Notes: generated from the sequence alone by a model not told the origin. Shown: positions 17,018 to 33,398, counted from the stretch's first letter. The stretch is DNA of 64,000 nt from Ignisphaera sp. (GCA_038889075.1 JAWAHS010000007.1:1-64000), one strand, 5' to 3'. Numbers and translations are program-made.

Positions 17018-17933
17018 ACTCTATCCTCCTCAATCCGAGAGCCAAAGAGATAGCTATAGTTAGACATAGAACTATCAAGGCTATAGGTAAGATTAGTAGT
17101 CGCGGAGACGGTTGTAGAGAAAACCAGTATAAGTTAGCAACCTTGTGTAGAGTATTGAGTGCTACTATGGATATCGATATAAGAAACATTAAAATTATAG
17201 AAGATATGCTAGTTATGGCTATTGCAACCCCTAAGATAATCTTCCTTCTATCTATGCCAAGATATAGGAACACCTCAATTTCATCTTCAAGTGCGGTAAA
17301 TACCCTCGACAAAGCTATATACATAAGAGGTGCATGGGCTATTAACAATGCTGTTATCCAGGCCAAAGAAGCCTCAACTACACCTTTCTCCAAGAACTTA
17401 AAGGCATACCTCAATACCTCCAACGAATTTATCCTACACAGCTTAACCCTACTATCAATAGAATTGTTAACCAACACTATAACGGCGTAGAAACCTGTAT
17501 GAGTATGGGAAACGCATCTCTTGACATCATCTATAGCTATGCCGCCATCTAAGTACCTCCTGTAAATATCCATTGGGACTGATACGAACCCACAATCTTT
17601 TGCTACCTCCTTAAAATTTACGATGTTCTTAAGCAAAATATCTACAGAAGCAATAATCAGAGGTAGCTCAAATTCATTTAATCGAACTACCCCAGCTACT
17701 TCTACAGAAGAACACAGGTCGGATGTAACATGAGCATCCTGAGCTACAAACAAATTCACGGTGTTAATGACGGTGCCCTGCAGCATGGTATCTGCAAACC
17801 TGGATATATTTGGTATTGATAGGAGAATAGTAGCTAATACAATAGGCGCTGCAAAGGATACTATCAACGATCTATAGGCCCTTTTTCTGAGAATAGATAA
17901 AATTATAGCTTTTATGATCTCTATAAAAACCAT
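17010..17933 (-). CDS. FtsX/MacB-like ABC permease
   Basis: Same topology, with EDEIEVFLYLGIDRRKI. Confidence 0.75.
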   Translation of the reverse strand: MVFIEIIKAIILSILRKRAYRSLIVSFAAPIVLATILLSIPNISRFADTMLQGTVINTVNLFVAQDAHVTSDLCSSVEVAGVVRLNEFELPLIIASVDILLKNIVNFKEVAKDCGFVSVPMDIYRRYLDGGIAIDDVKRCVSHTHTGFYAVIVLVNNSIDSRVKLCRINSLEVLRYAFKFLEKGVVEASLAWITALLIAHAPLMYIALSRVFTALEDEIEVFLYLGIDRRKIILGVAIAITSISSIILMFLISISIVALNTLHKVANLYWFSLQPSPRLLILPIALIVLCLTIAISLALGLRRIEYG

Positions 17934-18462
17934 AGCTCTTCATCTACATGTTTTACAATTTGTAGGCGTTCTCCAAGGATAGTACTACATATTATAAAAA
18001 GATTTTTACTGCTATATATTCTTTTCAAAGTCAATCAGACCTTCTGTAATAAGTATAGGGTTGAAAGCCGTGTACCAACGTATAGCTGTAGCTAGTAAAG
18101 CTTAAGCCCAATATTCCCAGGGGGTATGCTAAGCTTATAGTGCATACCCGACATATGCACCATTTTTACCAAAGGCTAAAGGCCTTAGATGAAGCTATAA
18201 CGCTTGCTGTATCCTATGATAGTCTTCAGTCTAGAGATTTCTCGTACAATCCTTACCTTCTAACTATATTCTTCAGTAAAGAAAGAGTAAAGATTCTAAT
18301 ACAACTAATCCCATCCCTCTAGCCCCTAAACAGTTTATCCTCTAAAGTCTCATCATAGATCCTCCTAGTGGTATGGTGCACAATGGTGTCTGCAAAAAGT
18401 TGAGGTATATCTATGAGGTGTTGTGTACGGCTTTGGATGTAGAGAAGAATATGGCTATAGAC

Positions 18463-18702
18463 TTAATTTCTGGTGATGGCTCTAGCAGATGTAGATTGAT
18501 ATCCCTTTTCTTTTGCATAGTTCTCTACTTCTCTACCTATCCATACTCCCGCTAGAATCCCTATAACCTCTTTCTCTGGATAGCATCTCTTCACTATATC
18601 GAGTTTACTCAAGAGATTACCTACATCTCCATGCCTAGGCTTAACATTAACTTCAACAAAATATACAGATCTATCGCTCTCTATAAGAAGCTCTATAGGC
18701 AA
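18463..18702 (-). pseudogene. C-terminal fragment of a PD-(D/E)XK / DUF3782-like protein
   Basis: IELLIESDRSVYFVEV..KP...IGREVENYAKEKG aligns with the C-terminus of 45921-46724. Confidence 0.75.
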
Positions 18703-19040
18703 CTACCGCCATTGGTTCAATCCATGCTGTGGCTTAGGAAGCTTCAGAGTCTCCCTAAACCTAATACATATGCTACACATATCTAGCTCCAGCTCACTGG
18801 CAATATCATTTGCAAATTCATCTATCACTCTACTCATCTCGTCACTCCTCAGTATCCTCTTAAGCCTATCCATTTTTCTTCTCCCTTGTATAATAATATA
18901 GTTTAACAGTGGTTGCGGTATTCTAGTACTCAATTTAAACACCAATAACAGTATTATATAACGGAGAATATAGATTCTATTAAGATGAGCGAAACCGTAA
19001 GATAGCAATCAAATTCTCTCGAACGTCGCTATAGCTAAGC
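18703..19040 (-). pseudogene. Deleted duplicate of the iscU...HTH operon (iscU promoter and 5' end fused to the HTH 3' half)
   Basis: Protein identity to 28607-28945 (PQPLLNY...LDMCSIC.RFRE.L.LPKPQ) and DNA similarity of 18915-19040 to about 31182-31311. Confidence 0.85.
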
Positions 19041-19231
19041 TAGTCTATGTAGATATATGGGAGCTTTACTAGTATAGAAAGCATCTAGAGCTCCATACAA
19101 TCACTCCAATCTTAGAAAATACATTGAATAGCATCCCATCCACTCTAAATCCATCGATTGTCTACAGGATAAAAAATTTAAAACTGTTCCTAACGTACAA
19201 AATAACACATCTACCCACCGCCTATTTGGGA

Positions 19232-19468
19232 ATGGACATGCCTTTAGAACTAAAAAATGTTATTCCAACTGCTGTATATAGATGCGAAGTTTGTGGTAAA
19301 ACTACATCTACTCCAATTCTCTATAAGACTTGCTGTATGAATAAACCTGTTGCCTTATGTAGTCGTGAATGTCTGAATAGGTGGATCAGTGAATGGATTA
19401 AAAACCAAGAACAGATTCTAAGGAATAGAGAGGGTGCTAGAAAACCCCTTAGAAAACTCTATGCATAG
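19232..19468 (+). CDS. Small Cys-rich TRASH/YHS-like metal-binding protein
   Basis: CEVCG...KTCC.....LCSREC; start moved to ATG 19232/19238 downstream of an AT-rich promoter-like tract. Confidence 0.75.
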   Translation: MDMPLELKNVIPTAVYRCEVCGKTTSTPILYKTCCMNKPVALCSRECLNRWISEWIKNQEQILRNREGARKPLRKLYA

Positions 19469-19499
19469 CCCAATTCTATGCTATTCACGATACTTCTAT

Positions 19500-19600
19500 A
19501 GATACTTAGTGGACAATCGCTACACCTTTTATAATTGCCTTTCCATTACCAAAAACATAATCGTAGTATCATCTATACTGACTGGGATCAAGACTCTTGG
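19500..19600 (-). pseudogene. Remnant resembling the C-terminal domain of the ThiF protein
   Basis: VFGNGKAIIKGV versus LFRDGRALIKGI in 23530-24579. Confidence 0.45.
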
Positions 19601-20089
19601 TTTAAACTACTCCTCATTTCGAGTATCTTTATCCCAACTCGGCTACTCTTTTACCAATTTTCCCACACTATCTGATAGATTCTCCAGCTGTATTCATCGA
19701 ACTATTCAAACCCTTTTTTAATCGAAATAATGCATGACAAGATATTTAAACTCTTCATCCTCTCTCAATGAGGTGGCCCTGGCCAGGTATCCCAATGCTG
19801 GTGTGGAGAGGCCCTCAGACTCCCTACCCATTACAATGGGTAGGGTTTTCTATGCTGTTGGTGAGTGCTGCACACCTGCTCTAGTGGTTCTGTGAACCGG
19901 TCTAGCCACAACTTCTTATATCAAGGGTTAGCCCACTAGGTTGCAGGAAAGCTGGAAACAACAAAATCTCATAGACTATTCTGATCTGAGGAATGATAGA
20001 TACAGGGTTGAAAGATGGTCACATTATTGCTGATGGTCCCGGAGCTATCGGTAGTGTGTTAGTGTATGACGCAGCAATAGAATACACAA

Positions 20090-20383
20090 TCATAGTACCT
20101 CATCTAAACATTTAACTATCATGAAATCGCTATAGATATTCTTTGGTCTATCCTCCACTATTGTGAGTGAGTTTATTTCATAAATTTTATTTAGAGAGAT
20201 CTTTTCTTTAAACTTCTCTATACAAGCATCGTCACCTTCGGCATAGATCTCTACACATGGAACGCCAATTAAGTTCTCTACATAACCTTTTAGATCGAGT
20301 GCCTTTGCAATTCTCCATACAAATCTTCTGTATCCAACGCCTTTAACATCACCACATGCAGTAATTTTAACAGCCCTAACCAT
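20090..20383 (-). CDS. Acylphosphatase-family protein
   Basis: GDVKGVGYRR, LKGYVENL, VEIYAEG. Confidence 0.88.
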   Translation of the reverse strand: MVRAVKITACGDVKGVGYRRFVWRIAKALDLKGYVENLIGVPCVEIYAEGDDACIEKFKEKISLNKIYEINSLTIVEDRPKNIYSDFMIVKCLDEVL

Positions 20384-20397
20384 CCTATCGTCGCCTC

Positions 20398-21816
20398 CTA
20401 GACAAGCTTAAATTCCATTAAAATTCTGTGATCAGCAATGTATTTCTTAAGTTTAGCTGGAGCAATAACCTCCGAATCTCCCTTACCGATAACTTCACCA
20501 ATTATTGATGCATTTAATCCTTTGGCTTTAAGATCCTTTACAACATCGTGTGCTATGGCATCGGGAGCCACTATTATAAATGGTCCATTTGTACCGCTTG
20601 TCGCATTAGGTATTATATAGAGTTTGGTGGCTAGCTCTGATATTTGTGGAAATAGCAGTGGTACGTCATAGAGCTTTATGGTGGTATTGCTACGTTCAGC
20701 AAGCTCCTTAACCACTAGAACTCCAGGTCCAGTAACATCCGTAGTTATCGATATATGTTCATCAGGTTTGAATTCTTCTCTGTAATACGGTAGATACTTG
20801 TATATTACTTGTGCAGCCTCTATATTTGGTGTTGATATTCTTTCAACAGCCTCATCCTTAGCCTTCTCCACCTCTCTAAGCTGTATCCCTAGCTCCTCGA
20901 TATCCTTAACTATACTCTCATCTACTATACAGGATAGGAAGAGGTTTATAGGGGCCAGCTCTCCCATGGGCCTTGTTATCACTAGCTTTGATCCAATCTC
21001 GACCCTATCTTCAAATAGTGGTGGAGCTCTGTCGCTATAGCCTATGGTTGTTGCCCCCATTAGGAGCCTCCCTCTCTCTAGCTGTGAGCTCCTCTCAAAG
21101 CCAACATCGTACTTCTTTGAGTAAATCTCTATGTTGCTCCAGAGCCTCTCAATAAGCTCCTCAGATGGTGCATTAATTACCGGGTATACCCTAAGGTTTC
21201 TGTGTACACCTAAAACAAAGATATCGTTTAAAGCATTACTTAGTGCACCACTAACCTGTCTAAAGTCGCCAGGTTCTTGTGTAGGGTCTACGATATGTAT
21301 AGTGTCGTTATTTACAGCTGTGAATCCCTCACCTATAGACTCTGGCAAAAAATCAAATAGTATAAATTCATCTTCTGCAAAAGGTGTTATTATTGAGTGC
21401 CCCTTACCGAGATATATTGGTAAATTCAGCTCTGCTAACTTTAAGTAAACGGGGGCTATCTTATCTAGAAATGCTTCTGGTGTATCTGCATACCTTTGAT
21501 AGATCTGTACAACAGTTACTGCATACAGCTTTCTACCCCTTGAAACCGTCCTTATATCAGTTAGATCTATTTTAGCTTGAGAGTTCAAGTGATAGACTCT
21601 CCTATGAACCTCACTAGCATCGCCACTAATAATAAGGGCATCCTCCCTTGGAGCTATAGCAAACCTCGATCTATTCAGCTTTTCCTTTAAATTTCTTATA
21701 GCCGGATATACAACTCTAAGGAGGTCAACCTTAACGGCACATCCAGTTGCAAGTGCTAGCGGATTTAATCCAAGCTTTTTATAGTATTGAATTCTCTCGA
21801 TAAGCTCTTCAAACAC
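20398..21816 (-). CDS. SelD-like (PurM/AIRS fold) putative sulfur-metabolism protein
   Basis: GCAVKV (Cys-x-x-Lys), ALNDIF, TDVTGPG, TSGTNG; crenarchaeal SelD-like type. Confidence 0.88.
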   Translation of the reverse strand: MFEELIERIQYYKKLGLNPLALATGCAVKVDLLRVVYPAIRNLKEKLNRSRFAIAPREDALIISGDASEVHRRVYHLNSQAKIDLTDIRTVSRGRKLYAVTVVQIYQRYADTPEAFLDKIAPVYLKLAELNLPIYLGKGHSIITPFAEDEFILFDFLPESIGEGFTAVNNDTIHIVDPTQEPGDFRQVSGALSNALNDIFVLGVHRNLRVYPVINAPSEELIERLWSNIEIYSKKYDVGFERSSQLERGRLLMGATTIGYSDRAPPLFEDRVEIGSKLVITRPMGELAPINLFLSCIVDESIVKDIEELGIQLREVEKAKDEAVERISTPNIEAAQVIYKYLPYYREEFKPDEHISITTDVTGPGVLVVKELAERSNTTIKLYDVPLLFPQISELATKLYIIPNATSGTNGPFIIVAPDAIAHDVVKDLKAKGLNASIIGEVIGKGDSEVIAPAKLKKYIADHRILMEFKLV

Positions 21817-21818
21817 CT

Positions 21819-22076
21819 CTACCTACCCCTCTTAACTACAACTATCCTCCACACACCACGTCCAACGTTATCCACGGAGAGAACGTCATGGCCATCATCA
21901 CGCATGGCTCTAGGAACATTTTCACATGATGGTGGATTGTCTGTTACAATCTCCAGTACATCGCCTTCCCCAATCTGTGATAGAGCCTTTCTAGCATATA
22001 TAACGGGGTAGGGACATACATACCCTCTTACATCCAAGAGATACCTCCTCTTATCAATTCTACTAAACTCAACCAT
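21819..22076 (-). CDS. TusA/SirA/YeeD-family sulfur carrier
   Basis: LDVRGYVCPYP, LEIVTDNPPSCENVP. Confidence 0.92.
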   Translation of the reverse strand: MVEFSRIDKRRYLLDVRGYVCPYPVIYARKALSQIGEGDVLEIVTDNPPSCENVPRAMRDDGHDVLSVDNVGRGVWRIVVVKRGR

Positions 22077-22129
22077 TTAAGACCACTATAGTATAGTGTG
22101 TGCAACCAGCTATTTAAAATTCTTTCGCA

Positions 22130-22144
22130 AATAACAGTGTTATT
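22130..22144. promoter_or_regulatory. Palindromic operator AATAACAGTGTTATT
   Basis: Perfect 7-1-7 palindrome in the tusA/yeeE divergent promoter region. Confidence 0.75.
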
Positions 22145-22178
22145 AAAATCGAGGAAAATGTTTATGCGGCAACTCTTA

Positions 22179-22195
22179 AAATAACAATGTTATTT
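22179..22195. promoter_or_regulatory. Palindromic operator AAATAACAATGTTATTT
   Basis: Perfect 8-1-8 palindrome about 20 bp upstream of yeeE. Confidence 0.75.
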
Positions 22196-22214
22196 GATTA
22201 AGAATATAGGGTAG

Positions 22215-23429
22215 ATGCACATGCCTACATCCATGGGCTATATAGGCTATATAAGAGATAGGTTTAGGACAGCAGTATTTAGTAATAGTGGATGGTCTCC
22301 GGTTATTGCAGGGGTTTTGATAGGTTTGATACAGATTATATCATATGTGTGGGTAAATAAGCCATTTACAGTGTACGCAGGTTTTCTAAATTGGGGGCAG
22401 CATATCTATAGCAGTTTAGGGATTAAAATATTCGGAGTTCCAAAACAGTTGCCACTATTTGAGCCTACTTCGACAGGTGACATAGGGGTTATTATAGGAG
22501 CTTCACTAGCTGCAGCACTATCAGGCGAACTAGCATTAAGAAGAGTTGGTAGAGCTATCGATGTTATTGAGGCAGTTGTAGGCGGTATTTTAATGGCGTT
22601 AGGTGTATCGCTGGCCTTCGGCTGCAACTGGGGCGGTTTCATTTCAGCAATAACGTCATGGAGTCTGCATGGCTTTGCCTTCCTTATAGGTGCTGTTATT
22701 GGTGGACTGCTAGGTCTACGCTATACTATTTATAGAATAGAGAGTGAATGGAGAAAGAGCCTATCTATGGTCTATGAAAAACGGGCGCTACTTAATAGTG
22801 ACAGTAGTAGCAGAGATGCAAGTTACATGCTACTGATACCATTAATAGCGCTAGGTATCCTAGTGGCTTACTATGCTATAGTGGGTAGCTATATGGTTGG
22901 GGGAATGCTCATGGGCACTATTGTTGGTATTGTTTTGCAGAGGTCGAGGTTATGCTTTGCAACAGCATTTAGAGATCTATTCAATGGACCTGAAAATAGA
23001 AGAGCTCTAGATATCCATAAGGGCATAGCGGTAGCTATTCTAGTGGGGTCTGTGGGAGTCTTTGCACTAAAGTATATGGGGATCAGAGACCCAATGATAT
23101 CGGTATCGCCAGTTCATGTTACAAATGTTTTAGGGGGGCTGATCTTCACTTTTGGTTCAATAGTGGCTGGAGGATGTGCCTCAGGAGTACTATGGAGGGC
23201 TGGGGAAGGCCATATGAAGTCCTGGATTGCCATATTATCAACTGTATTAGCATACCCTATATTCGCATCACTACTACGACCGCTAACCTCATCTTTTCCA
23301 AGAGTATTTTTACCAGCTGTGGTAGGATGGATAGGAAGCTTTGTAGCGATGCTGATCTTTATCGCAGCATACACTACAGTGATATACTACCTAGAATATA
23401 GATACGTAGGTAAACAACGTTTGCATTAG
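22215..23429 (+). CDS. YeeE/YedE (TsuA) sulfur-compound/thiosulfate transporter
   Basis: Three conserved Cys motifs FGCNWG, QRSRLCFA, AGGCASG; multi-TM. Confidence 0.9.
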   Translation: MHMPTSMGYIGYIRDRFRTAVFSNSGWSPVIAGVLIGLIQIISYVWVNKPFTVYAGFLNWGQHIYSSLGIKIFGVPKQLPLFEPTSTGDIGVIIGASLAAALSGELALRRVGRAIDVIEAVVGGILMALGVSLAFGCNWGGFISAITSWSLHGFAFLIGAVIGGLLGLRYTIYRIESEWRKSLSMVYEKRALLNSDSSSRDASYMLLIPLIALGILVAYYAIVGSYMVGGMLMGTIVGIVLQRSRLCFATAFRDLFNGPENRRALDIHKGIAVAILVGSVGVFALKYMGIRDPMISVSPVHVTNVLGGLIFTFGSIVAGGCASGVLWRAGEGHMKSWIAILSTVLAYPIFASLLRPLTSSFPRVFLPAVVGWIGSFVAMLIFIAAYTTVIYYLEYRYVGKQRLH

Positions 23430-23503
23430 GTCGTTAAATGGCTCCTAGGTCTTTAGGTAAAGCCATTTTTTAGGTTATGTAGGGTAAGACTTTTAAGTGT
23501 ATT

Positions 23504-23520
23504 AAATAACATTGTTATTT
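23504..23520. promoter_or_regulatory. Palindromic operator AAATAACATTGTTATTT
   Basis: Perfect 8-1-8 palindrome between the TATA-like TTTTAAG (23491) and the thiF ATG (23530). Confidence 0.75.
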
Positions 23521-23529
23521 GTGATCTAA

Positions 23530-24579
23530 ATGAAAGTTTATCCAGAGGCTTTTGCGGATTATATTGAGAGGTATTCAAGGCAGATAATGGTTTTAGGTGT
23601 TCAGAATCAGTTGAAACTCTCAAAGGCTAGAGTAGCAATAATCGGCTGTGGGGCCACCGGAAGCAGTGTCGCAGAGGTTCTGGCTAGAGCTGGTGTGGGC
23701 TTTATAAGAATTGTTGATATGGATTTTACTGAGATTAGCAATCTCCATAGAGTTCACCTCTATACAGAGGCGGATGCAAGAAACAGTATTTTGAAGGCTT
23801 TTGCATGTAGGAGGCACCTAGTTGAGATTAACAGCTCTATTGAGGTTGAATCAATTGCAACTGCTGTGGATTCGTCAAATATAGAGGAGCTTGTAGGAGA
23901 TGTAGATCTTGTTATAGATGGTACTGATAATATCGAGATCAGACTTCTAATAAATGAGGCATGTGTGAAGCTCAGTAAGCCATGGATCATGATTGGTGTT
24001 GAGGGGTGGTATGGGATGGTGAAATTTATAGACGCAGCAAAAACTGCGTGCCTCAGATGCTTTATTACAAGTACACCTAGGAGGAGACAGAATGCATGTA
24101 ATATTATAGGTGTTGTCAATACGGCTGTATTTATTACAACAGCAATAGCATCTACGCTAGCATTAAAGCACCTTCTTGGATGTGATGTAGATGAAGAGCT
24201 GTTTATAATCGATAGCTATAGCCTACACATAAAGAGGGTCAAGGTGCTCAAGAATTCGAGATGCCCCGTCTGTGGATTAAATATATTTGAACACCTATCA
24301 AAGTCCGATGAATCTAATATAAGGATATGCGGAGGCAACTCCGTAGAAATACGGCCGCAGAGAAAAGTTGAGATAATGCTAGAGAAGCTAAAGAAGGAGA
24401 TGTTTAGACGTGAAAATATTATCATTGAGGATCACATAGCCTACATACATAGAGATGGTGTACAGATGGCACTCTTTAGAGATGGAAGAGCACTCATCAA
24501 GGGGATTACAGATGTTGAGGAGGCTAAAAAGCTTTACCACAGTATATTGGATGAATTGAGGAAATACGTCGCAGATTAA
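23530..24579 (+). CDS. ThiF/MoeB/E1-like adenylyltransferase
   Basis: GCGATG, SNLHR, DGTDN, CLRC and CPVC zinc motifs, NAC catalytic-type Cys. Confidence 0.92.
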   Translation: MKVYPEAFADYIERYSRQIMVLGVQNQLKLSKARVAIIGCGATGSSVAEVLARAGVGFIRIVDMDFTEISNLHRVHLYTEADARNSILKAFACRRHLVEINSSIEVESIATAVDSSNIEELVGDVDLVIDGTDNIEIRLLINEACVKLSKPWIMIGVEGWYGMVKFIDAAKTACLRCFITSTPRRRQNACNIIGVVNTAVFITTAIASTLALKHLLGCDVDEELFIIDSYSLHIKRVKVLKNSRCPVCGLNIFEHLSKSDESNIRICGGNSVEIRPQRKVEIMLEKLKKEMFRRENIIIEDHIAYIHRDGVQMALFRDGRALIKGITDVEEAKKLYHSILDELRKYVAD

Positions 24580-24829
24580 TAGCTAAATAAAGTTTTCCCT
24601 TAACGTCCCCCTGAAGTTCAATATACCAGGGATTCGGATACTGTTTTCCAATAATATAAAGGAAAATAGAAGATTATTTGTAAGGGGGATTCTGTTATAG
24701 ACTGGCAAATAGCAATATTTAACGTGCTTCTCATTATCTCTTTACGAATTCTAAAGCTCCCGACTTTTCTTCAATGGGCATAACGCCAACATCTACTAAA
24801 GTCCTCTATGCATACATTAACTCTACACC

Positions 24830-25200
24830 TAAGATGGTTCAAGTCCTTCAGAACTATTACCGCACCGTATCTATACACTCTCTGCTATCCTGCCACTTAG
24901 CTTATGTGCATAGTCCCACAAGACATTTTTAATTCTTTCACAATATCTCTCAATATCTCTCCTAGCTCCCTTGACGAATCTCCGCGACTTGGGATGGCGC
25001 TTCTGATCCTCTCAATCTATATTCTGTGGGTTAGGAGTCCTCCTGTAGGTGTCTTGAACCTTTCTAATCCAAGTAGTGTGCTACTGATATCAACAAACCG
25101 CTAGAGTTACGTTGTTGAAGTTCACATCCACAGTTATGACAGCTCTGCGTTGTTTCCTTAACTTAGCAGCTTCCTGAAGTATGTGGAAATACATCTAATT
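24830..25200 (-). mobile_element. tnpB: TnpB (IS200/IS605 OrfB) pseudogene
   Basis: Frameshifted fragments AVITVDVNFNNVTLAV (RuvC-I), RFKTP..LLTHRI, ERIKNVLWDYAHK, AVIVLKDL (RuvC-II with E to K). Confidence 0.8.
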
Positions 25201-25265
25201 GCAAGTCAAAGATATGATTGGATATGCTCTATATGAGTGGAGAGCTTATGGTAAGTCTCCTATTC

Positions 25266-25400
25266 CTATATATTGTTGAGCTCTTCTAGGTTTATGTGTA
25301 GTGAGGGTACTGTGTAACCGTAGTAGGAGTGTCTGGTTGTTTTTGGTGGAAATACGTTCTTCTCTATGAGTACTTTCCTTAGTATTGCAATCTGATGGGT
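25266..25400 (-). pseudogene. C-terminal remnant of a SerK-like (ParB/Srx family) serine kinase
   Basis: VFPPKTTRH...VPSLHINLEEL, typical of the SerK-like C-terminus; no upstream domain. Confidence 0.55.
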
Positions 25401-25609
25401 TAAGGTTCGAGATATCGAGATTCCCGATTCTACTATGCCACGAGATTTGGTTGGGTAATGTACGGCTTTTCCAGCGCAGTTCAATATGTAATAGTATGTA
25501 GAGTATTGTAGCATTTATAGATGTTTTTACCATACTTATATGAATAAATATTTAAAAAGATTAAACTATGAAATAGTGGTAGCTACCTGTATCCAGGTGC
25601 TGATGAGCA

Positions 25610-27511
25610 ATGCATGGTGCTAGATCTGCTAATGATATGGAGAATCTGGTGCTGTATTTAGATAGGGTCCTCTCACCTAAAATGTACGAAAGGCTTATGA
25701 GGATTAGGGATCCTTCGCTACACAGATGGATAGCAAGAATAATTAGCATAGCTAGACCCTCATCGGTATATATACTCACTAGTGATGAAGATGATGCTGT
25801 ATATGTAAGGAGAGCTGCTATTGAGAGAAGAGAAGAGTTGCCCACCAAATACCCTATGCATACCGTACACTTTGATGGTATTAACGATCTTGCTAGAGAT
25901 AGGAAGAACACCAGAATACTGCTTCCTCACAATAGAAGCATTCCCTTCTTAAACACATACGATAGGGAGATGGGTATTGCAGAGATCTTTAGGCTAGCTG
26001 AAGGCATTATGGAGGGTAAGGAGATGTTTGTAGCTTTTTACTGTTTCGGTCCCAGAAATTCGGATTTCACTATGTACGCTGTGCAGGTAACCGATTCAGC
26101 ATATGTCATCCACTCTGAAAATATTCTATATAGACCCTGCTACGATGTTTTTGTCGAGAAGGCACCGCATATAGAGTATGTAAAGTTCTTCCACTCAGCT
26201 GGGGAGCTAGATGAAAATAATTGGTCTAAGAATGTAAATATGAGAAGGATATACATAGATGTTGTCGATAGTGCTGCCTACAGCATAAATACCCAGTATG
26301 CTGGAAATAGCGTTGGTCTTAAGAAACTCATGCTTAGAATGTGTATCTATAGAGGATGTAGAGAGGGATGGTTATGCGAACACATGTTTATTGTTGGAGT
26401 TAGAGGGAATGGTGATAGGATAACGTATTTCACAGGTGCTTTTCCCGCTGGATGTGGTAAAACTTCAACTGTTTTTGCAGCTGATACAATTGTTGGAGAC
26501 GATATAGCTATAATCAAAGCTATAGATGGTGTAGCTAGAGCAGTAAATCCTGAGGTAGGGATGTTTGGTATCATAGATGATATCAACCCGGCAGATGATC
26601 CTGCACTCTACCAGCTACTAACATCACCAGAGACGGAGGTTATATTTACAAACGTACTTCTAATGGATGATGGAGAGGTATGGTGGAGAGGAAAGCCAGA
26701 GCCACCTAAACCAGGCATCAACTATGCTGGAAGGTGCTGGCCTGGAAAAGGTGATGGAGGGGATAACGAAGTTCCGCTTTCCCATCCAAATGCTAGATTC
26801 ACTATGTCCATAAGGTATCTAAATAATCTAGATCCAAGGATAGACGACCCCAATGGCGTTCCCATACAAGGTATGATCTTCGGTGGAAGAGACTACCACA
26901 CACTACCATCAGTTGTAGAAGCCTTTAACTGGATCCACGGCATAATTACCATGGGCGGTGCTCTAGAGTCAGAGAAAACAGCTGCTATACTCGATGGAAC
27001 CAGTGAAATGGAATTTAATCCGTTTGCCGTACTAGACTTCCTACCAATATCTATTGGAAGGTTTCTAGAGCTTCACCTAGATTTTAGTAGAAAGCTTTCT
27101 TCCAAACCCAGGATATTCAATGTCAACTACTTTTTAAAAGATGAAAATGGTAGATTCATAGCAGGTAAAAGTGATAAGAGGGTCTGGCTTAAATGGATGG
27201 AGCTTAGGGTACACGGAGACATAGATGCGGTAGAGACCCCCATAGGATACATACCTATCTACAGCGATCTCGCCAAACTATTTGACCGATACCTTGGCAA
27301 AGAGTACAGTGAGGCTAGATACGAGAAGGAATTCACAATCATGATAGCCAGTCTAATCAGTAAGATAGAGAGGCTGTGGAACATATACTCTGCAATACCC
27401 GATACACCACCGATACTCTTTGAGACGCTAAGAATCCAGAAGAAAAAGTTAGAAGAAGCAAGGTCTAGCTACGGGGATAAGGTAAAGCCATTCAAATTCA
27501 GCAAGATTTAA
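25610..27511 (+). CDS. pckG: Phosphoenolpyruvate carboxykinase (GTP)
   Basis: YAGNSVGLKK, LCEHM, AFPAGCGKT, VGDDIA, HPNARF, IFGGR, VNYF. Confidence 0.95.
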   Translation: MHGARSANDMENLVLYLDRVLSPKMYERLMRIRDPSLHRWIARIISIARPSSVYILTSDEDDAVYVRRAAIERREELPTKYPMHTVHFDGINDLARDRKNTRILLPHNRSIPFLNTYDREMGIAEIFRLAEGIMEGKEMFVAFYCFGPRNSDFTMYAVQVTDSAYVIHSENILYRPCYDVFVEKAPHIEYVKFFHSAGELDENNWSKNVNMRRIYIDVVDSAAYSINTQYAGNSVGLKKLMLRMCIYRGCREGWLCEHMFIVGVRGNGDRITYFTGAFPAGCGKTSTVFAADTIVGDDIAIIKAIDGVARAVNPEVGMFGIIDDINPADDPALYQLLTSPETEVIFTNVLLMDDGEVWWRGKPEPPKPGINYAGRCWPGKGDGGDNEVPLSHPNARFTMSIRYLNNLDPRIDDPNGVPIQGMIFGGRDYHTLPSVVEAFNWIHGIITMGGALESEKTAAILDGTSEMEFNPFAVLDFLPISIGRFLELHLDFSRKLSSKPRIFNVNYFLKDENGRFIAGKSDKRVWLKWMELRVHGDIDAVETPIGYIPIYSDLAKLFDRYLGKEYSEARYEKEFTIMIASLISKIERLWNIYSAIPDTPPILFETLRIQKKKLEEARSSYGDKVKPFKFSKI

Positions 27512-28034
27512 TGTAAAAGTTGCCACCACAATGCTCTTCTACAAGGATTTTACTAATGTACTCTATTAAATCCTTCAATCTATGTAGAAGAAGTCGAATA
27601 AAGAAAATACGGTGATCCTGTAGCTAAAATCATTTTGATAGAGAGATAACGGGCTTCGATTAAATCTGTAGTTTAACAGCACCTCTAATGCAATGTTAAT
27701 ACCTTTGGAACCCATTTCCCTTGAAGAGAAAAGGGTGTTTTTCTAGTCTACCCAGAATTGCTAAGGAAACGATAGAATTGCTAAGCACGGATTCCGCTAT
27801 GGATGGTGCAAGCAATTCGATATGGGAATGGTATTCGGTATGCAACCTAGACTCAGAAAATCATTTAATATACATATAGCAGAGCTGATATTTGTTTAAA
27901 ACAGTAATTGGTTTTCCTCTGATCATACAATTCCAAACATATCAAGGAAAGTATCTATGCTAGCGATTCGTAATAGTAGAGAGGTATACATAGGTTCTGG
28001 TACACCTAAAATAGATCCTATAGTTGAAAATGTA

Positions 28035-28568
28035 CTATTTCTTTATGTACTTCTGCACAATATTTTTAATAGTATCATCTATACCAAGTTCTTTAGATGC
28101 TCTTTCAATTTCCTTCTCCACACCATCAATGATGTCAGCTACATCGAATCCTAGAGACTTGTATTCCAAACCCTTAACATATGTTGCTATATAGTTACAT
28201 AGTTTTGCCACTTTGGACTCCACATCATCTTGATTAGTGTAGCTAATGTAGAGTTTTTTGATGGTATCACTATCTATGCCTTCCTCTACAAGCCGAAGCT
28301 CGATAACCTTCTTACGATCACCTACTTCAGAGCTGAATACCTTAACGATATCACCGGTAAAAGCCTCGCCAATATCATGAACAATTGTATAGAGAATAAG
28401 TTTTCCAAGATCAACGCCAATTCTACTTCCAATATCCAAGCATATGTATGAGGATAGGAAACTGTGCTCAGCTATGCTTTCTGCTAAATATCTCGGTACA
28501 CCTCTTAGCATCCAGCCACTTCTAGCTGTAGAGATTAGAGACTTTGCAATACTTACGGTATTCTTCAT
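28035..28568 (-). CDS. HD-domain phosphohydrolase (YfbR-like)
   Basis: RSGW, ESIAEHS, VHDIGEAFTGD. Confidence 0.85.
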   Translation of the reverse strand: MKNTVSIAKSLISTARSGWMLRGVPRYLAESIAEHSFLSSYICLDIGSRIGVDLGKLILYTIVHDIGEAFTGDIVKVFSSEVGDRKKVIELRLVEEGIDSDTIKKLYISYTNQDDVESKVAKLCNYIATYVKGLEYKSLGFDVADIIDGVEKEIERASKELGIDDTIKNIVQKYIKK

Positions 28569-28606
28569 ATATTCCTACCTCGATGTTCTGTAGGTAGCTA
28601 TTGCCA

Positions 28607-28945
28607 CTATTTTAATCTGTACTGTGGTTTGGGAAGATCTAGATGTTCTCTAAATCTAGTGCATATACTGCACATATCTAGCTCTAGTCCACTGGCAATC
28701 TCATCTGTAAGCTCATCGACTATTCTACTTACTCTACCATCTCCTAATACCCTTTCTAGATTGTGTAATCTTCTCCTCCCCTTTATAACATAGTTTAGTA
28801 GTGGTTGTGGTAGACCAACAGCTTTTGCAGCCTGTAGTTGGGAAAAGCTATACCTCTCTATAAGATTCAATGCTATAGCTACCCTTATAGGCGTTGAATA
28901 GATTTTTATAAATAGTTCACAAAACGATTTCCTAATCATATCCAC
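28607..28945 (-). CDS. XRE-like HTH transcriptional regulator with C-terminal CxxC
   Basis: SQLQAAKAVGLPQPLLNYVIKGRR HTH; MCSIC; N-terminal FCE. Confidence 0.85.
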   Translation of the reverse strand: MDMIRKSFCELFIKIYSTPIRVAIALNLIERYSFSQLQAAKAVGLPQPLLNYVIKGRRRLHNLERVLGDGRVSRIVDELTDEIASGLELDMCSICTRFREHLDLPKPQYRLK

Positions 28946-28957
28946 AACCCTAAAAAT

Positions 28958-29176
28958 CTACATTCTAACAATATGTATCTCGAAATACCCACCTCTAACA
29001 ATAACCTCTATACTACCTATACTAAAAGCTTTTACCGTCTCCACAATCACATCTACACACATCTTCGATGATGTTAACACAACTAGTTTGGTGTTCTTAT
29101 CCATCTTAGATAGCTCTCTAACAGTTTTTACCAAAGGCCCTGGACATTCCTCGCCTCTAAAATCCAGCAGATGCAT
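28958..29176 (-). CDS. TusA-family sulfur carrier
   Basis: LDFRGEECPGPL. Confidence 0.88.
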   Translation of the reverse strand: MHLLDFRGEECPGPLVKTVRELSKMDKNTKLVVLTSSKMCVDVIVETVKAFSIGSIEVIVRGGYFEIHIVRM

Positions 29177-29189
29177 GTAGATTCCTCTA

Positions 29190-30428
29190 TCAACTTGGTT
29201 TCAAAGAACTTATACTCCTAAGTCTTTCAACAGCCTTTGGCGTAACATCTAGTGTATAGTCTATATCCTCTTCTCTATGGTAGTGCGATAATTTGAATAG
29301 TATACTTCCATGGGCCTCCTCATGCTTCCTGCCAATAGCTAGCAGTACATGGCTTGGCTCTAAAACTCTACTAGTACACGCACTACCGCTGGAAACATAT
29401 ATTCCATTGAGACTAAGCTCTACTGTTACAGCTTCCCCCTCGATATACAGAAAGCTTAGATTTGCATTATTCGCTACCCTGTACCTCACATGCTCATCCC
29501 AGGGCCCATTTACAATAACTGAGGGGATCTTCTCAACTAGTCCGTTGATGAGCTTATCCCTAAGTCTTTCAACATAGCTGACCCTATAGTCAAAGTCTCT
29601 GAAAGTTATTTCCACAGCTTTTTTAAAACCCGCTATGAGGGGGGTGTTTTCAACCCCTGGCCAAATTTTTTCAACACTTAACTGCCCTCTTATAGGGGGC
29701 TCCAGCTCCACATCCCTTTTAACATAGAGGACCCCTACACCCCTAGGGCCGTGAATCTTATGGCTACTTATAGTCATCATGTCGACGCCAAGCCTTCTAA
29801 CATCTATGGGTATCCATCCATAGCCATCAGCGGCATCAGTATGAAATACAGCATCCGGATTCATATCCTTAACAACATCTATAAGCTCCTTTAATCTCTG
29901 TATAGTGCCAATCTCATGGTTTACAGCCTGGATGCTTACTAGAACAGTATCCTTATCAATATACATTTTGAGTAGCTCTGGATCCACAAGACCATTTCTA
30001 TCAACAGGGATGAGCTGCACCTTAAATCCAAGTAGCTCTGAAGCAAATTGCGCTGGAAATATAGTGCTCAGATGCTCTATGGCTGATAGAACAACCCTAC
30101 CTCCCCTACCTCTATTCTTTAGAAGATAGCCAAGTATAGCAAGATTGTTTGCCTCTGTACCACTGTGTGTAAACACAATCTCTTCAGGATCTACACCCCC
30201 TATAGTTTTTGCAACCAGCTCTTTTGTTTCATAGATAACCTCTAGGGCTTCCCAACCAACTCTATGTGTTATGGATGGATGTCCATAGCCCACCCTATTA
30301 AAGTAGGGTATCATAGCCTCAACAACTTCCTGGGGGACAAAACCACTGTTCTCTAAATCGTAGTAAACCTCTCTAGAGGGCTTTCCATGCACCTCTAGAA
30401 ACTCCCTTATCTTCCCAGACATGGACAT
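29190..30428 (-). CDS. iscS: IscS/NifS-like cysteine desulfurase (divergent)
   Basis: SGTEANN, IEH, VNHEIG, SSHKIHGP (PLP Lys), SSGSACTS (persulfide Cys). Confidence 0.88.
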   Translation of the reverse strand: MSMSGKIREFLEVHGKPSREVYYDLENSGFVPQEVVEAMIPYFNRVGYGHPSITHRVGWEALEVIYETKELVAKTIGGVDPEEIVFTHSGTEANNLAILGYLLKNRGRGGRVVLSAIEHLSTIFPAQFASELLGFKVQLIPVDRNGLVDPELLKMYIDKDTVLVSIQAVNHEIGTIQRLKELIDVVKDMNPDAVFHTDAADGYGWIPIDVRRLGVDMMTISSHKIHGPRGVGVLYVKRDVELEPPIRGQLSVEKIWPGVENTPLIAGFKKAVEITFRDFDYRVSYVERLRDKLINGLVEKIPSVIVNGPWDEHVRYRVANNANLSFLYIEGEAVTVELSLNGIYVSSGSACTSRVLEPSHVLLAIGRKHEEAHGSILFKLSHYHREEDIDYTLDVTPKAVERLRSISSLKPS

Positions 30429-30430
30429 GT

Positions 30431-30682
30431 CTATTCAGTACCTCTTCTAGCTATAATAAAAACCGACTTACCATCTATATTCTTCAACTCTTTAATATAG
30501 TAGTTGTATCTAGACAGGAAGAACTCCATGGCGTTTATAGGTATATCATCTAAGTTAATGTATATCCTAATCTCATCAACATTCCTTCTACTAATCTCTG
30601 ATAATTTGTTGGATAGTACAACAACTGGGTGTGATGTACATGTACTTGGAATATTTCTGAGATCCATTTCCTCGACTTTCAA
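30431..30682 (-). CDS. Divergent TusA-like protein
   Basis: MDLR....CTSHP; size and alpha/beta pattern of TusA. Confidence 0.6.
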   Translation of the reverse strand: MKVEEMDLRNIPSTCTSHPVVVLSNKLSEISRRNVDEIRIYINLDDIPINAMEFFLSRYNYYIKELKNIDGKSVFIIARRGTE

Positions 30683-31212
30683 CGGCTTTCACCCGAGGTT
30701 AGAGCCTTTAAAGATCTATAGTATCTCTCCACCATCTCCTCCTCTTCAAAAACCTGCTTCTCCTCAACAGTAAGATCTTTTGGAAGCCACGAAGGGCTCT
30801 CACCAACCCTCCTATAGTAGGCCCTTATACCTCTCTTCAAAGCACCTACAGCCAAAATGCTGCAGTGGTACTTAATTGGTGGGAGGCCCCCCAGCACATC
30901 GGATATCTCCCTCCACGTTATTTTCCACGCATCTTCAAGCTTTCTACCAGTTATCATCTCAGTTATAATACTTGCAGCAGCGATATTAGCTGCACATCCA
31001 TAACTTTCAAAACCAGCCCTTTCCACATAATCACCATCACCCCTCCTGCTAATCTTAAGATAGAGTTTTATCATATCGCCACATGCAGGGCTACCGGCAC
31101 TTTCAACAACAGTCGCATCGCTTAAAGGCCCTAGATTCCTAGGGTTTCTAAATAGCTCTAGAATTTTTGGGCTATAGGGTAGCGGTATTCTCATACTCAA
31201 TCCAACCACCAA
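30679..31212 (-). CDS. iscU: IscU/NifU-type Fe-S scaffold (true start may be ATG 31194)
   Basis: F.NPRN.G, PACGD, GCA, LPPIKYHC. Confidence 0.92.
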   Translation of the reverse strand: MVVGLSMRIPLPYSPKILELFRNPRNLGPLSDATVVESAGSPACGDMIKLYLKISRRGDGDYVERAGFESYGCAANIAAASIITEMITGRKLEDAWKITWREISDVLGGLPPIKYHCSILAVGALKRGIRAYYRRVGESPSWLPKDLTVEEKQVFEEEEMVERYYRSLKALTSGESR

Positions 31213-31224
31213 TAACAGTATTAT
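31211..31224. promoter_or_regulatory. Operator variant AATAACAGTATTAT
   Basis: One mismatch to the palindrome, immediately upstream of iscU; the same word recurs at 18944-18957. Confidence 0.6.
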
Positions 31225-31847
31225 ATATGTATCAATATATTAAACTTTACCGATATGAATAGAACCATAGTGTGGTAATCAAATTCTTCTGGGCACCACT
31301 ATATAGCTAAGTATTTAAAGCGGGCTTCCCCCACACCACTGCTCTATCTAGCATATAATTCAGTACCTATTCGAGGTTTAGGTATGCCTCTGAGTTTCTA
31401 GATACTCTGTTTTATTTGGCCTGACTTCTCTAAATGCTTTTCTTCTTAGCTTTCACATGTATCACCATGTTTCTCAAGCCCCTTGTAGCAACTCCATGTT
31501 TCATACACTAAACCGCCTTACTGTATCACGCTAATAGCTACAGCTATACCTCTGAAGACCTGTAGCCAGGCATTAAGAATGATACAGCTCCGCCAATTAA
31601 CGCTATAATAGCTGTATCGACTAATATAAGTATAATGCCGATAGAATTTAACACGGATGCTGTAGTAGTTTTCCGCCGTACTTCAACCCCACCTCCATTA
31701 TCTACTTAGAGTATCTAAGTTTATTTATGGTATAAGGGTTGAATGGTTGGTTTTTTGTATTGTTTAAAGTAGATTGGTTACAGCTTAAGAGCTTAAATAA
31801 AGTTTAAATTATTAAGCTGTTTAAGATGATCGTAGTTAGCTGGAGAA

Positions 31848-32645
31848 TTGGTTGTAGGCATTGTTCAAGCTTATTTCAACAAATCACCCACGGATAATCT
31901 AGCTAAAGCTAGCTCTATTATTATGAAGAGGTTTAGAGAAGCTGATATCGTTATTCTACCTGAGTACAGCATGGTAAACCCTTTTATTTTTCTGGATTCA
32001 GCTGAAGTCTACGGGTTATCCGAGGATATATCCTCTAGCAGGTATTTAATATATTTAGAGAAAATAGCCTCGAAACTCAACACCATAATAGTTGCACACT
32101 TTATAGAGAGAACAAATATCCCACCTCTAACTAAAAATACATCAGTTCTTGTATCGGCAAACAAAAATATACCTGTTTACAGTAAAATGCATCTTTTTGA
32201 TGTGTACAGCTACAGAGAATCCGATTTCTTCAAATCAAGTGCTGCTCCGGGAGACAGTTACTATAAAAATTTTAAACTTAGTTTCACAATATGCTATGAT
32301 CTTCGTTTCCCAGAGCTGTTTCGGTTCTACGCAGCTAAAGGAACTGATACAGTAATTGTTCAAGCAGGATGGGTTAAAGGGCCCCTTAAAGAGGAAATAC
32401 TAGATGTACTAGCTTCAGCTAGAGCACATGAAAGCACGGTATGCATTGTTTTAGCGAATCAAACCGGGGATATGTTTACCGGTAGAAGCGGGGTATTTAA
32501 CCCCTGGGGTTATAAGGAGTTGGATATGGATTTTGATGAGAGGTACGCTGAGTATACGCTAAACATAGAAGAAGTTGAGAAAGCAAGATCGGCTCTCCCT
32601 GTAGTGCATCAAGCGGTTGAAAGGTGGGAGGTGAAAATAAGATAG
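31848..32645 (+). CDS. Carbon-nitrogen hydrolase (nitrilase superfamily, Nit-like amidase)
   Basis: E-K-C triad: LPEYS, YSKMHLFD, ICYDLRFPE. Confidence 0.9.
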   Translation: MVVGIVQAYFNKSPTDNLAKASSIIMKRFREADIVILPEYSMVNPFIFLDSAEVYGLSEDISSSRYLIYLEKIASKLNTIIVAHFIERTNIPPLTKNTSVLVSANKNIPVYSKMHLFDVYSYRESDFFKSSAAPGDSYYKNFKLSFTICYDLRFPELFRFYAAKGTDTVIVQAGWVKGPLKEEILDVLASARAHESTVCIVLANQTGDMFTGRSGVFNPWGYKELDMDFDERYAEYTLNIEEVEKARSALPVVHQAVERWEVKIR

Positions 32646-32929
32646 CTTAAACCTTCAAAAGGTAAATATGATTGCTCAACTATCTCACCAATACAAAGAC
32701 TACCTCTTCTGAAGGCTTACACCTGTAAATACCTTTAAATCTCAGGAATTTTTGTAGAGCGATTACTAGTGTAAGTATAGATGCTAATGCCTCCCCAATA
32801 ACACCCAACACGAACTGTTCTGGGTTTCATATCTGTTTGTAGTGGCTGTTAGAGGTGGAGATGCTCATAGGCGCCCCTATGTGTTGGTGTGTGGAGGCTA
32901 TCCGGTGTGGGAGTGGGACCCTGTAGAGT

Positions 32930-33046
32930 GTGCTCCCCCGAGGTGCCCCTAAACACCCCCAAGGGCGATGCAGATCCAAGACCGATGCAGAGGAAAAGAG
33001 ATGAGGCGATGAAAACATCCCACATAAACCAGCATAGGAGCCGAAT
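32930..33046 (+). mobile_element. TnpB 3' end / omega-RNA relic
   Basis: Reads VPLNTPKGDADPRPMQRKRDEAMKTSHINQH, like the C-terminal tail of crenarchaeal TnpBs that overlaps the right end. Confidence 0.6.
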
Positions 33047-33398
33047 CCCCAACTCACTTCTCTAGCCACCCCCACCTATGTGCAGTAGCCCCAGTGGGGT
33101 AGGAGTAGAGGCATCTGTTTACATGTAGATTGGTTTCCGCTACAATTCTTCTAGGGAACCCAAACACCCTAATACCCGATCCTCATCTACAGTACCCTCT
33201 AAACAGAAAGGGCCTACCACTCCTAGAGGTAGACTCCTCCTACAGCGAGTTTAACCCATACTCTAGGATTTTAGGTAGAGGACTCCCCTACTACAAAGTG
33301 GTGTATTCCCGACGACAGCGGGGATAGACTCTAAATCTAGTTCAGCGGCAGTATTTGGCGGTAGTCTCTGCAGCCCGTCAACCTTCTGGGGTATGGGT

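Follow-up and report, generated by a model that had tools for sequence, protein, structure and literature searches.

A palindromic candidate operator shared by sulfur-mobilising genes of Ignisphaera and related archaea, and a small HTH-Cys protein as its probable repressor

A 64,000-nt stretch of DNA from a hot-spring archaeon, an Ignisphaera species (GCA_038889075.1, JAWAHS010000007.1:1-64000; hereafter the window) carries a short palindrome, ATAACA-N-TGTTAT, in the promoters of genes for sulfur import, sulfur transfer and iron-sulfur (Fe-S) assembly. There is little doubt that this palindrome is a cis-element of a conserved sulfur-trafficking regulon, and a small helix-turn-helix (HTH) protein with a conserved cysteine set, encoded in one of the site-bearing operons, is probably an autoregulated repressor acting at it. 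The reading as a whole, in which the palindrome would be the operator of sulfur-mobilising genes and would be bound by this HTH-Cys repressor, is favoured with slightly less assurance and draws on sequence comparison. The window is contig C7:1-64000 of a source genome (G000) of 1,951,966 nt in 25 contigs that is 99.6% complete and in which open reading frames (ORFs) of at least 100 aa take up 83% of the DNA; labels of the type G### stand for genomes, L### for loci in relatives and C# for contigs of G000. To our knowledge, the regulation of sulfur assimilation and Fe-S assembly in archaea is little characterised. Literature text searches, made in main texts without supplements, for an archaeal YeeE/TusA regulator, for the motif and for archaeal SelD/TusA/YeeE returned nothing relevant.

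The window was scanned for the 15-mer AATAACA-N-TGTTATT (AATAACANTGTTATT) with up to 2 mismatches, and 100 dinucleotide shuffles served as background. Exact matches were found at 22130-22144, 22180-22194 and 23505-23519, a match with 1 mismatch at 51721-51735, and 18944-18958 and 31211-31225 each differ from the 15-mer at 2 positions; these 6 matches compare with a shuffle mean of 0.76 and a largest shuffle value of 4. An initial annotation of the window had proposed a palindrome shared by the tusA/yeeE spacer and thiF, and the three exact 15-mers bear this out. Its coordinates were right for the first site and off by 1-2 nt for the second and third, and the copies at 31211 and 18944 that it described as having one mismatch do so in the 13-nt core ATAACA-N-TGTTAT (ATAACANTGTTAT) and have two in the 15-mer. 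Frequent chance occurrence, a risk named in the same annotation, is not what the genome-wide scan of 1.95 Mb returned: the exact 15-mer occurs only three times in G000, always inside 1.4 kb of the locus, against 0.044 expected by composition, and it ranks second in over-representation among the 184 distinct 7-N-7 palindromes of the genome. The exact core occurs 4 times against 0.48 expected, all four copies lying outside ORFs of at least 120 aa. With one mismatch there are 31 core matches in G000, and because 19 of them lie inside ORFs, degenerate copies are taken to be mostly noise.

The near-match at 51721 lies inside an oligopeptide ABC permease gene and is probably due to chance. An RNA-structure reading of the palindrome was rejected, as arms of 6+1+6 leave a one-nucleotide loop and no stable hairpin; Rfam and tRNA scans were also negative over 17000-34000. 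Of the sequencing runs listed for 20000-24600, 16 cover it in whole or part, hot-spring metagenomes among them; the runs are recorded as DNA, and no RNA run was listed. The most over-represented 7-N-7 palindrome of G000 is CTGTAAC-N-GTTACAG (window 55735, C7:66375, C2:82741, C14:21127); TGTAAC-N-GTTACA was discarded as an operator since it sits in a stretch of about 60 nt repeated at four places, apparently paralogous coding sequence.

The candidate operators of the window are as follows.

22130..22144, tusA side of the divergent tusA/yeeE spacer: operator O1, AATAACAGTGTTATT, exact match
22180..22194, yeeE side of the divergent spacer: operator O2, AATAACAATGTTATT, exact match
23505..23519, thiF promoter: operator O3, AATAACATTGTTATT, exact match
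31211..31225, promoter of the iscU operon: operator O4, AATAACAGTATTATA, core with 1 mismatch
18944..18958, within a duplicated iscU promoter fragment: operator copy O5

The last of these is not an independent occurrence, because 18911-18960 shares 88% identity with 31178-31227, which spans the iscU promoter and first codons, and is thus a duplicate of that promoter; what had been counted as a further site is a rearranged paralogue of the isc promoter. The other sites lie close to both the TATA-like box and the start codon. O1 is 54 nt upstream of the tusA ATG (22076), and its right half overlaps the minus-strand TATA-like sequence TTTTAATAA (22140-22148). O2 overlaps TTAAAATAA (22176-22184) and stops 21 nt short of the yeeE start codon (ATG at 22215), O3 overlaps ATTAAATAA (23501-23509) and stops 11 nt short of that of thiF (ATG at 23530), and O4 precedes the iscU ATG (31194, minus strand) by 17 nt. 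The left half of the window's perfect sites lies on the TATA-like box (TTAAAATAACA, ATTAAATAACA; on the minus strand TTTTAATAACA). In most orthologous promoters of relatives the core begins 0-9 nt past a TTAAATA-type box, 3-33 nt separate its end from the start codon, and a GGTG-like ribosome-binding sequence often follows it. A position on or just after the TATA box is the place where archaeal repressors exclude TBP/TFB or RNA polymerase. Since the sites abut or overlap a TATA-like box, they point to repression, in which the bound protein would cover the stretch from TATA box to start codon and block TBP/TFB or RNA polymerase.

The tusA promoter fits this less well. O1 is followed downstream by a second TATA-like box, GAATTTTAAATAG (22110-22122, minus strand), and if this is the box in use, O1 would stand in an activator-type position. 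Dual activity set by the position of the site is known for archaeal regulators, SurR included, and the HTH protein might accordingly bind as an activator or dual-function factor that activates from upstream of the TATA box, represses from downstream of it and switches the sulfur genes on. The 8 nt between O1 and the good TATA-like box at 22110-22122 would suit such a factor, but the core lies on or just past the TATA-like box at yeeE, thiF, iscU and most orthologous promoters, and O1 itself also overlaps the alternative box TTTTAATAA; activation is held to be improbable. A different perfect 7-N-7 palindrome, CACTATA-G-TATAGTG, is found at 22084-22098 and is unique in G000. It is placed between the TATA-like box at 22110-22122 and the tusA start, where relatives have the ATAACA core, and may be a site for another factor.

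Conservation in relatives was examined starting from a YeeE search that gave 12 loci in metagenome-assembled genomes titled Ignisphaera, Desulfurococcaceae, Thermoproteota, Nitrososphaeria, Pyrodictiaceae and Acidilobaceae. Seven of these loci carry the exact core, and the other five (L006, L007 and L010-L012) lack it. Related genomes with the core conserved before orthologues have YeeE proteins 44-59% identical to that of the window. In the Ignisphaera-type loci L001-L005 (YeeE 56-59% identical) the arrangement of tusA/SelD-related/acyP and yeeE is retained, and the core, exact or with one mismatch, stands before tusA as well as yeeE. The tusA promoters with a core are those of L001-L005, L008 and L009. 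In the last two, which carry Nitrososphaeria titles, the SelD-related protein is 41-43% identical, tusA, the SelD-related gene and yeeE form a single operon with the core placed after a TTAAATA box and ahead of the ATG. The iscU promoter, imperfect in the window, has a perfect core after 'cacc' at L001:15405, L002:6996, L058:17270 and L061:546, and the exact core stands directly 5' of thiF orthologues in G006, G007, G010, G001, G117 and G087. Overall, the core precedes orthologues of tusA, yeeE, thiF and iscU in 11 other genomes with diverged flanks (those behind L001-L005, L008, L009, L020/L037/L046, L058, L061 and L062). The motif is therefore found upstream of orthologues, and the co-regulation of four units proposed in the initial annotation gains support from these promoters; the number does not hold, as the regulon is wider. 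No shared alternative palindrome was evident in the yeeE/tusA or HTH promoters of the Pyrodictiaceae/Acidilobaceae-type loci (L007, L010-L012, L021-L023).

A whole-genome search of five related genomes returned 16 exact cores compared with 6 for the reversed pattern. These genomes were chosen since their loci already showed the motif or the HTH gene, a selection bias that counts against reading too much into the figures. The exact cores were distributed as follows.

Before thiF: 4
Before tusA: 3
Before yeeE: 1
Before iscU: 1
Between FTR1 and a Pyr_redox_2 gene: 1
Before another Pyr_redox_2 gene: 1
At a DUF4064 gene adjoining an HTH homologue: 2
Before a ParB_N gene: 1
Inside ORFs: 2

Thus 14 of the 16 precede a recurring set of genes, mostly sulfur and redox genes, the Pyr_redox_2 ones coding for flavoproteins. 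At the level of the order, the core occurs in 50 of 121 genomes (G000 included) and in 9 of the 12 other genomes of the window's genus. Among the clusters picked from this order-level scan, L058, from the same genus, has exact cores at thiF, at a divergent CGS-like/PALP pair, at a PP-loop ATPase, at a thioredoxin reductase-like (TrxR-like)/FTR1 pair and at the iscU operon, all five inside 14 kb; its CGS-like and PALP genes are orthologues of two site-bearing genes on other contigs of G000. The L058 pattern recurs in L062 with the addition of ThiM-ThiE. In L061 the sites are those of iscU and of a heavy-metal P-type ATPase gene, and L059 has two sites that both adjoin unannotated genes. The ATPase gene of L061 (L061:587-2983, G073; heavy-metal, HMA, type) has its exact core 13 nt upstream; either the regulon reaches metal export in some lineages or this site may have arisen by chance.

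Raw counts speak less clearly than positions. The exact core occurs 4 times in G000 against 2 for the reversed control, and counts of 0-6 across the 121 genomes of the order are modestly above the reversed control. Because of these modest counts, the order-level signal is positional and the case rests on position and orthology. A reading in which the matches are a by-product of AT-rich promoter composition (TATA-like or B recognition element-like) together with paralogous promoter duplication would account for an AT-rich motif that overlaps TATA-like boxes, for the proven duplication at 18944 and for genome-wide core counts only about 2x the reversed control. Such a by-product would not, however, be expected to leave the exact 15-mer confined to the locus (3 versus 0.044 expected) or to place 14 of 16 exact cores in five genomes before recurring, mostly sulfur or redox, genes. 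In addition, C5 and G9 of the core and its dyad symmetry are kept while the flanking promoter sequence has diverged, in a table of promoter sites whose entries were picked by their match to the core, and the site-bearing promoters, 18944 aside, are little alike beyond the motif and its immediate flanks. The promoter repeat families D2, I1, I8 and I12 are 20-30 nt each. This explanation is considered very improbable.

Within G000 the regulon appears to extend to other contigs. The fourth exact core, at C8:9686, is intergenic and lies 54 nt upstream of a pyridoxal phosphate (PLP) enzyme of Cys/Met metabolism (Cys_Met_Meta_PP). A weight matrix built from sites of several genomes, including the window's own and hence partly circular, gave 8 matches of at least 17 bits in G000 versus 0-1 in five shuffles. 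Eight of its ten best matches are intergenic and correspond to the five window sites and the promoters at the C8 PLP enzyme, C1:441721 and C3:89500. The C1 site is 60 nt before a PALP enzyme gene, and the C3 site lies between a MoaD-MoaE fusion and a VTT-domain gene; the PALP (cysteine-synthase-type) enzyme and the MoaD-MoaE fusion are probably also under the operator. The two remaining matches, both inside ORFs (17-19 bits; one 50 nt before cdvA, the other inside an 821-aa ORF), were judged to be chance, as was a one-mismatch site before ribosomal protein S26e (C2:26737).

The best local candidate for the regulator, as the initial annotation had suggested from its CxxC motif, is the HTH protein of the isc operon, and its gene is found beside or behind the palindrome in three gene arrangements.

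28607-28939, minus strand: candidate HTH regulator gene, fifth gene of the isc operon

The gene encodes a 110-aa protein with Cys7-Glu8 and Cys90-x-x-Cys93 (numbered from the ATG at 28939). In the first arrangement (window, L001, L002, L058) it is inside the site-bearing isc operon, and the order iscU, p83 (an 83-aa ORF), iscS, tusA2, HTH is kept in L001, L002 and L058. In the second (L060) it is a separate gene, apparently with its own promoter, that has an exact core 26 nt before its start; its neighbours are a site-bearing PALP gene on one side and, on the other, a cysteine desulfurase gene with a one-mismatch site. In the third (L008, L009, L020) it and a DUF4064 gene are transcribed divergently from a common spacer that holds an exact core, and a degenerate copy (AAAAC-N-CTGTTAA type) lies on the HTH gene's own TATA-like box. 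More distant homologues adjoin cysteine desulfurase genes (L021, L029, L030) or thioredoxin-fold genes (L022, L023). HTH paralogues with an extra C-terminal Cys/His cluster adjoin a DUF438-hemerythrin-PAS gene in L025, L033 and L058:7211-8922 and may form with it a second redox- or oxygen-responsive pair on the same scaffold.

A profile of the window protein and seven relatives matched 855 representative clusters at E<=1e-3, of which 175 reach <=1e-10, the nearest Atlas clusters being 90-100% archaeal. Several of 27 family representatives pass the 23-bit cut-off of HTH_3 (PF01381) over residues ~25-58 (P0017 31.9, P0023 27.8 and P0056 40.8 bits), and the family profile matched the HTH of 2a6c in the PDB at E 1e-4 and, more weakly, Cro and HipB (0.005-0.02) at profile positions 27-58. 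Membership of the Cro/XRE-like HTH class is thus suggested at the level of the family, not for the window protein alone. In an alignment of 71 sequences Glu8 is invariant and Cys7, Cys90, Cys93, Gln45 and Arg56 are near-invariant; some members have an extra fourth C-terminal Cys or a second Cys cluster. The AlphaFold2 (AF2) model has seven helices (predicted local distance difference test, pLDDT, 84.5); the lambda-repressor-like fold of Cro/C1 regulators has five. It gave no usable match to the PDB with Foldseek (best E 0.33) or in a wide VIA-align search (best Z 5.0, to BAX/BCL-2-type helical proteins), and no solved structure of the family was found by PDB profile search. A two-copy complex prediction gave a median of 0.39 compared with a mark of 0.42 and controls of 0.00, and counts neither way.

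Pieces of the isc operon are duplicated in G000. DNA repeat D1 relates 18687-18834 to 28582-28729, that is, to the 3' half of the HTH gene. The product of the ORF at 18703-19008 aligns with residues 29-112 of the HTH protein at 53% identity, and the truncated paralogue has a profile match (E 1e-18) to positions 41-104 of the family.

18703..18873, minus strand: truncated regulator paralogue, C-terminal half only; 56 aa from the first ATG past the duplicated promoter, CSIC kept

By comparison of the two copies, 18687-19008 reads as a deletion derivative of the isc operon, in which the iscU promoter, operator and start, now without its ATG, have been joined to the regulator's C-terminal half; the 56-aa paralogue could be an anti-repressor or a pseudogene. 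A second, full-length HTH gene is located at C5:34840-35713 (L051), with 99% protein identity to the window copy. A block of about 500 nt there, from the end of tusA2 through the complete HTH gene, shares ~99% identity with the window, and the flanks, remnants of iscS, tusA2 and HD, are ~70% identical, decayed and non-coding, which suggests an old duplication followed by recent gene conversion or by selection on the regulator alone. Elsewhere in the window, 32937-33000 matches six further places on five contigs at 87-96% identity, and 24902-25182 matches two places at 68-70%.

Besides the second box at tusA and the modest counts, several observations weigh against the HTH protein as the repressor at this palindrome. 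Two near-identical full-length regulator genes are present in G000, and the core at up to 1 mismatch was not found anywhere on contig C5. The window protein has no Pfam match (E<=0.01) or NCBIfam match. The recognition helix varies among lineages with the same core (PQPLLNYV versus TQAAVSYY), and homologues are also present in Pyrodictiaceae genomes with motif-free yeeE-tusA loci. The Cys set may serve structure and not sensing, since it is kept in P0125, a family representative (E 4.6e-12) in which the HTH part is fused to ThiN. Three of these points, namely the varying recognition helix, the homologues in genomes without the motif at yeeE-tusA and the lack of a family match for the window protein itself, would favour a palindrome that is a true operator of the sulfur regulon but is bound by another transcription factor, the HTH-Cys protein acting otherwise, either on its own operon through another site or as a metallochaperone-like adaptor. 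This is rather unlikely, as the HTH gene lies behind or beside the palindrome in three independent arrangements and no other DNA-binding domain was noted among the annotated site-adjacent genes of the examined loci. The HTH-Cys protein is retained as the preferred binder.

The genes behind the candidate operators in the window are listed below.

20090..22076, minus strand: tusA/SelD-related/acylphosphatase operon, synteny kept in L001-L005
21819-22076, minus strand: tusA, Pfam TusA, 77.8 bits
20398-21816, minus strand: SelD-related sulfur protein, Pfam AIRS_C and NCBIfam NF038049 (SelD_rel_HyperS)
20090-20383, minus strand: acylphosphatase, Pfam Acylphosphatase
22215..23429, plus strand: yeeE-type sulfur (thiosulfate) transporter gene, Pfam Sulf_transp, E 3e-42
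23530..24579, plus strand: thiF/moeB-type E1-like adenylyltransferase gene, Pfam ThiF, E 4e-61
28035..31194, minus strand: isc operon of six genes, iscU first
30679-31194, minus strand: iscU, Pfam NifU_N
30431-30682, minus strand: 83-aa ORF (p83), no Pfam family
29190-30428, minus strand: iscS, Pfam Aminotran_5
28958-29176, minus strand: tusA2, Pfam TusA
28035-28568, minus strand: HD hydrolase, Pfam HD_3

The match of 20398-21816 to NF038049 scored 573.1 bits against a curated cut-off of 250 and covered model positions 2-464 of 465. The thiF product matches the MoeB/ThiF models of NCBIfam with scores under their curated cut-offs. Pfam and NCBIfam thus agree with the gene calls of the initial annotation except for the ORF between iscU and iscS, which had been called a tusA: the 83-aa ORF gave no match to TusA (PF01206) in the window or in L001, with the threshold relaxed to E<=1, its homologue in L060 scored 19.3 bits against a gathering cut-off of 28.6, and its product had no BLASTP match to tusA2. 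In L001 (12007-12756) and L058 (14236-14631) a ThiI-type PP-loop sulfurtransferase follows the HTH gene in place of the HD hydrolase. A small Cys-rich ORF (CxxC...CC...CxxxC, no Pfam family) lies at 19124-19468 on the plus strand and is kept near the locus in L001 (5553-5787) and, in L005, between tusA and thi4; it may encode a metal-binding accessory protein.

In the preferred reading, sulfur or thiosulfate import by YeeE would be placed under the operator, as would tusA with the SelD-related enzyme and the acylphosphatase, the thiF/moeB-type E1 for activation of sulfur-carrier proteins, and the operon of iscU, the 83-aa ORF, iscS, tusA2, the regulator and the HD hydrolase. The Cys/Met-family PLP enzyme elsewhere in G000 would also be controlled. 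The binder would be the 110-aa HTH protein, presumed to act as a dimer on the palindrome, and the position of its gene as fifth in the operator-controlled isc operon would close a negative autoregulatory loop. The Cys-Glu...CxxC set would probably hold a metal or Fe-S cluster, or take sulfane sulfur, and DNA binding would follow sulfur or Fe-S status; such sensing is the least supported step of the scheme. More speculatively, and on balance doubtful, the HTH protein might found a family of archaeal sulfur/Fe-S status sensors in which the state of the Cys-Glu...CxxC set (cluster or persulfide) sets DNA binding. The family would then be an independent analogue of IscR, CysB and persulfide sensors on a Cro-like scaffold, with the scaffold re-used in ThiN-fused regulators and the truncated paralogue possibly an anti-repressor acting through mixed dimers.

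If this more speculative reading is true, one small autoregulated protein would govern the supply side of all sulfur traffic in Thermoproteota and some Nitrososphaeria-labelled lineages, with uptake, cysteine desulfuration and E1-activated carriers under its control as well as the branches to thiamine, to molybdopterin and to tRNA thiolation. The analysis supplies a defined candidate operator of 13-15 nt, a list of target promoters in several genomes and one small protein. It places the SelD-related enzyme (NF038049), the ThiF-type E1 and the acylphosphatase in one co-regulated sulfur pathway, which leaves fewer hypotheses on their function. Because the family, with 855 representative clusters, is found widely in archaea and lacks a solved structure, a characterised member would annotate many genes.

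In logic the proposed system resembles IscR, SurR and the persulfide-sensing repressors, and in sequence it belongs to none of those families. IscR of Escherichia coli is an Rrf2-family [2Fe-2S] repressor of iscRSUA. As with IscR, a small regulator in the isc operon is predicted to repress itself and Fe-S or sulfur demand would be linked to transcription of the cysteine desulfurase and scaffold genes; the ligand set of IscR is 3 Cys plus one, and here there are three near-invariant Cys and an invariant Glu. No Rrf2 domain was matched in the window protein (Pfam, NCBIfam), in the 27 relatives or in the PDB profile search. Unlike IscR, the HTH gene follows iscS-tusA and is not first, the operator sequence differs, and the regulon includes a YeeE-type sulfur importer (for thiosulfate in bacteria) and E1-like carrier activation.

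SurR of Pyrococcus and Thermococcus has a CxxC redox switch responsive to elemental sulfur, is a two-domain winged-helix protein that recognises GTT-N3-AAC, and acts on hydrogenase versus sulfur-reduction genes. The present system is likewise archaeal, with a CxxC motif, sulfur-related genes and a short palindrome near the core promoter, but it involves a 110-aa Cro-like HTH protein and ATAACA-N-TGTTAT, and its targets belong to sulfur trafficking and biosynthesis. SurR is named in PMC10746257.

The sulfane-sulfur repressors CstR, SqrR/BigR and sHdrR/SoxR have a Cys pair, as the HTH protein does, and repress genes for a YeeE-like importer, TusA and sulfur transfer until their cysteines are modified; they are bacterial members of the ArsR or CsoR families that act in dissimilatory oxidation or in detoxification, whereas the network here would be assimilatory and tied to Fe-S assembly. 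No homology of the HTH protein to ArsR/CsoR-type persulfide repressors was detected with Pfam or the PDB profile search. The repressors sHdrR/SoxR are treated in PMC10451225, PMC12423496 and PMC11582611.

The regulation of YeeE/YeeD in E. coli is by CysB. In bacterial thiosulfate uptake by YeeE/YeeD (TsuA/TsuB), described in PMC11073785, the YeeE-type transporter likewise has a TusA-family protein as its partner. Unlike that system, the pair in the window is divergent, has two operators in common and is tied to the SelD-related enzyme (NF038049). ThiN was found in only one of the 27 relatives, P0125, and its HTH + ThiN fusion is presumably the architecture of ThiR, the archaeal thiamine regulator. 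Like that of ThiR, the regulon in relatives touches thiamine genes, with a site adjoining ThiM-ThiE in L062, whereas the window protein, of 110 aa, has no ThiN match and its targets would be sulfur-mobilisation genes. The nearest characterised relative of the HTH-Cys protein appears to be the DNA-binding module of these ThiN-fused regulators.

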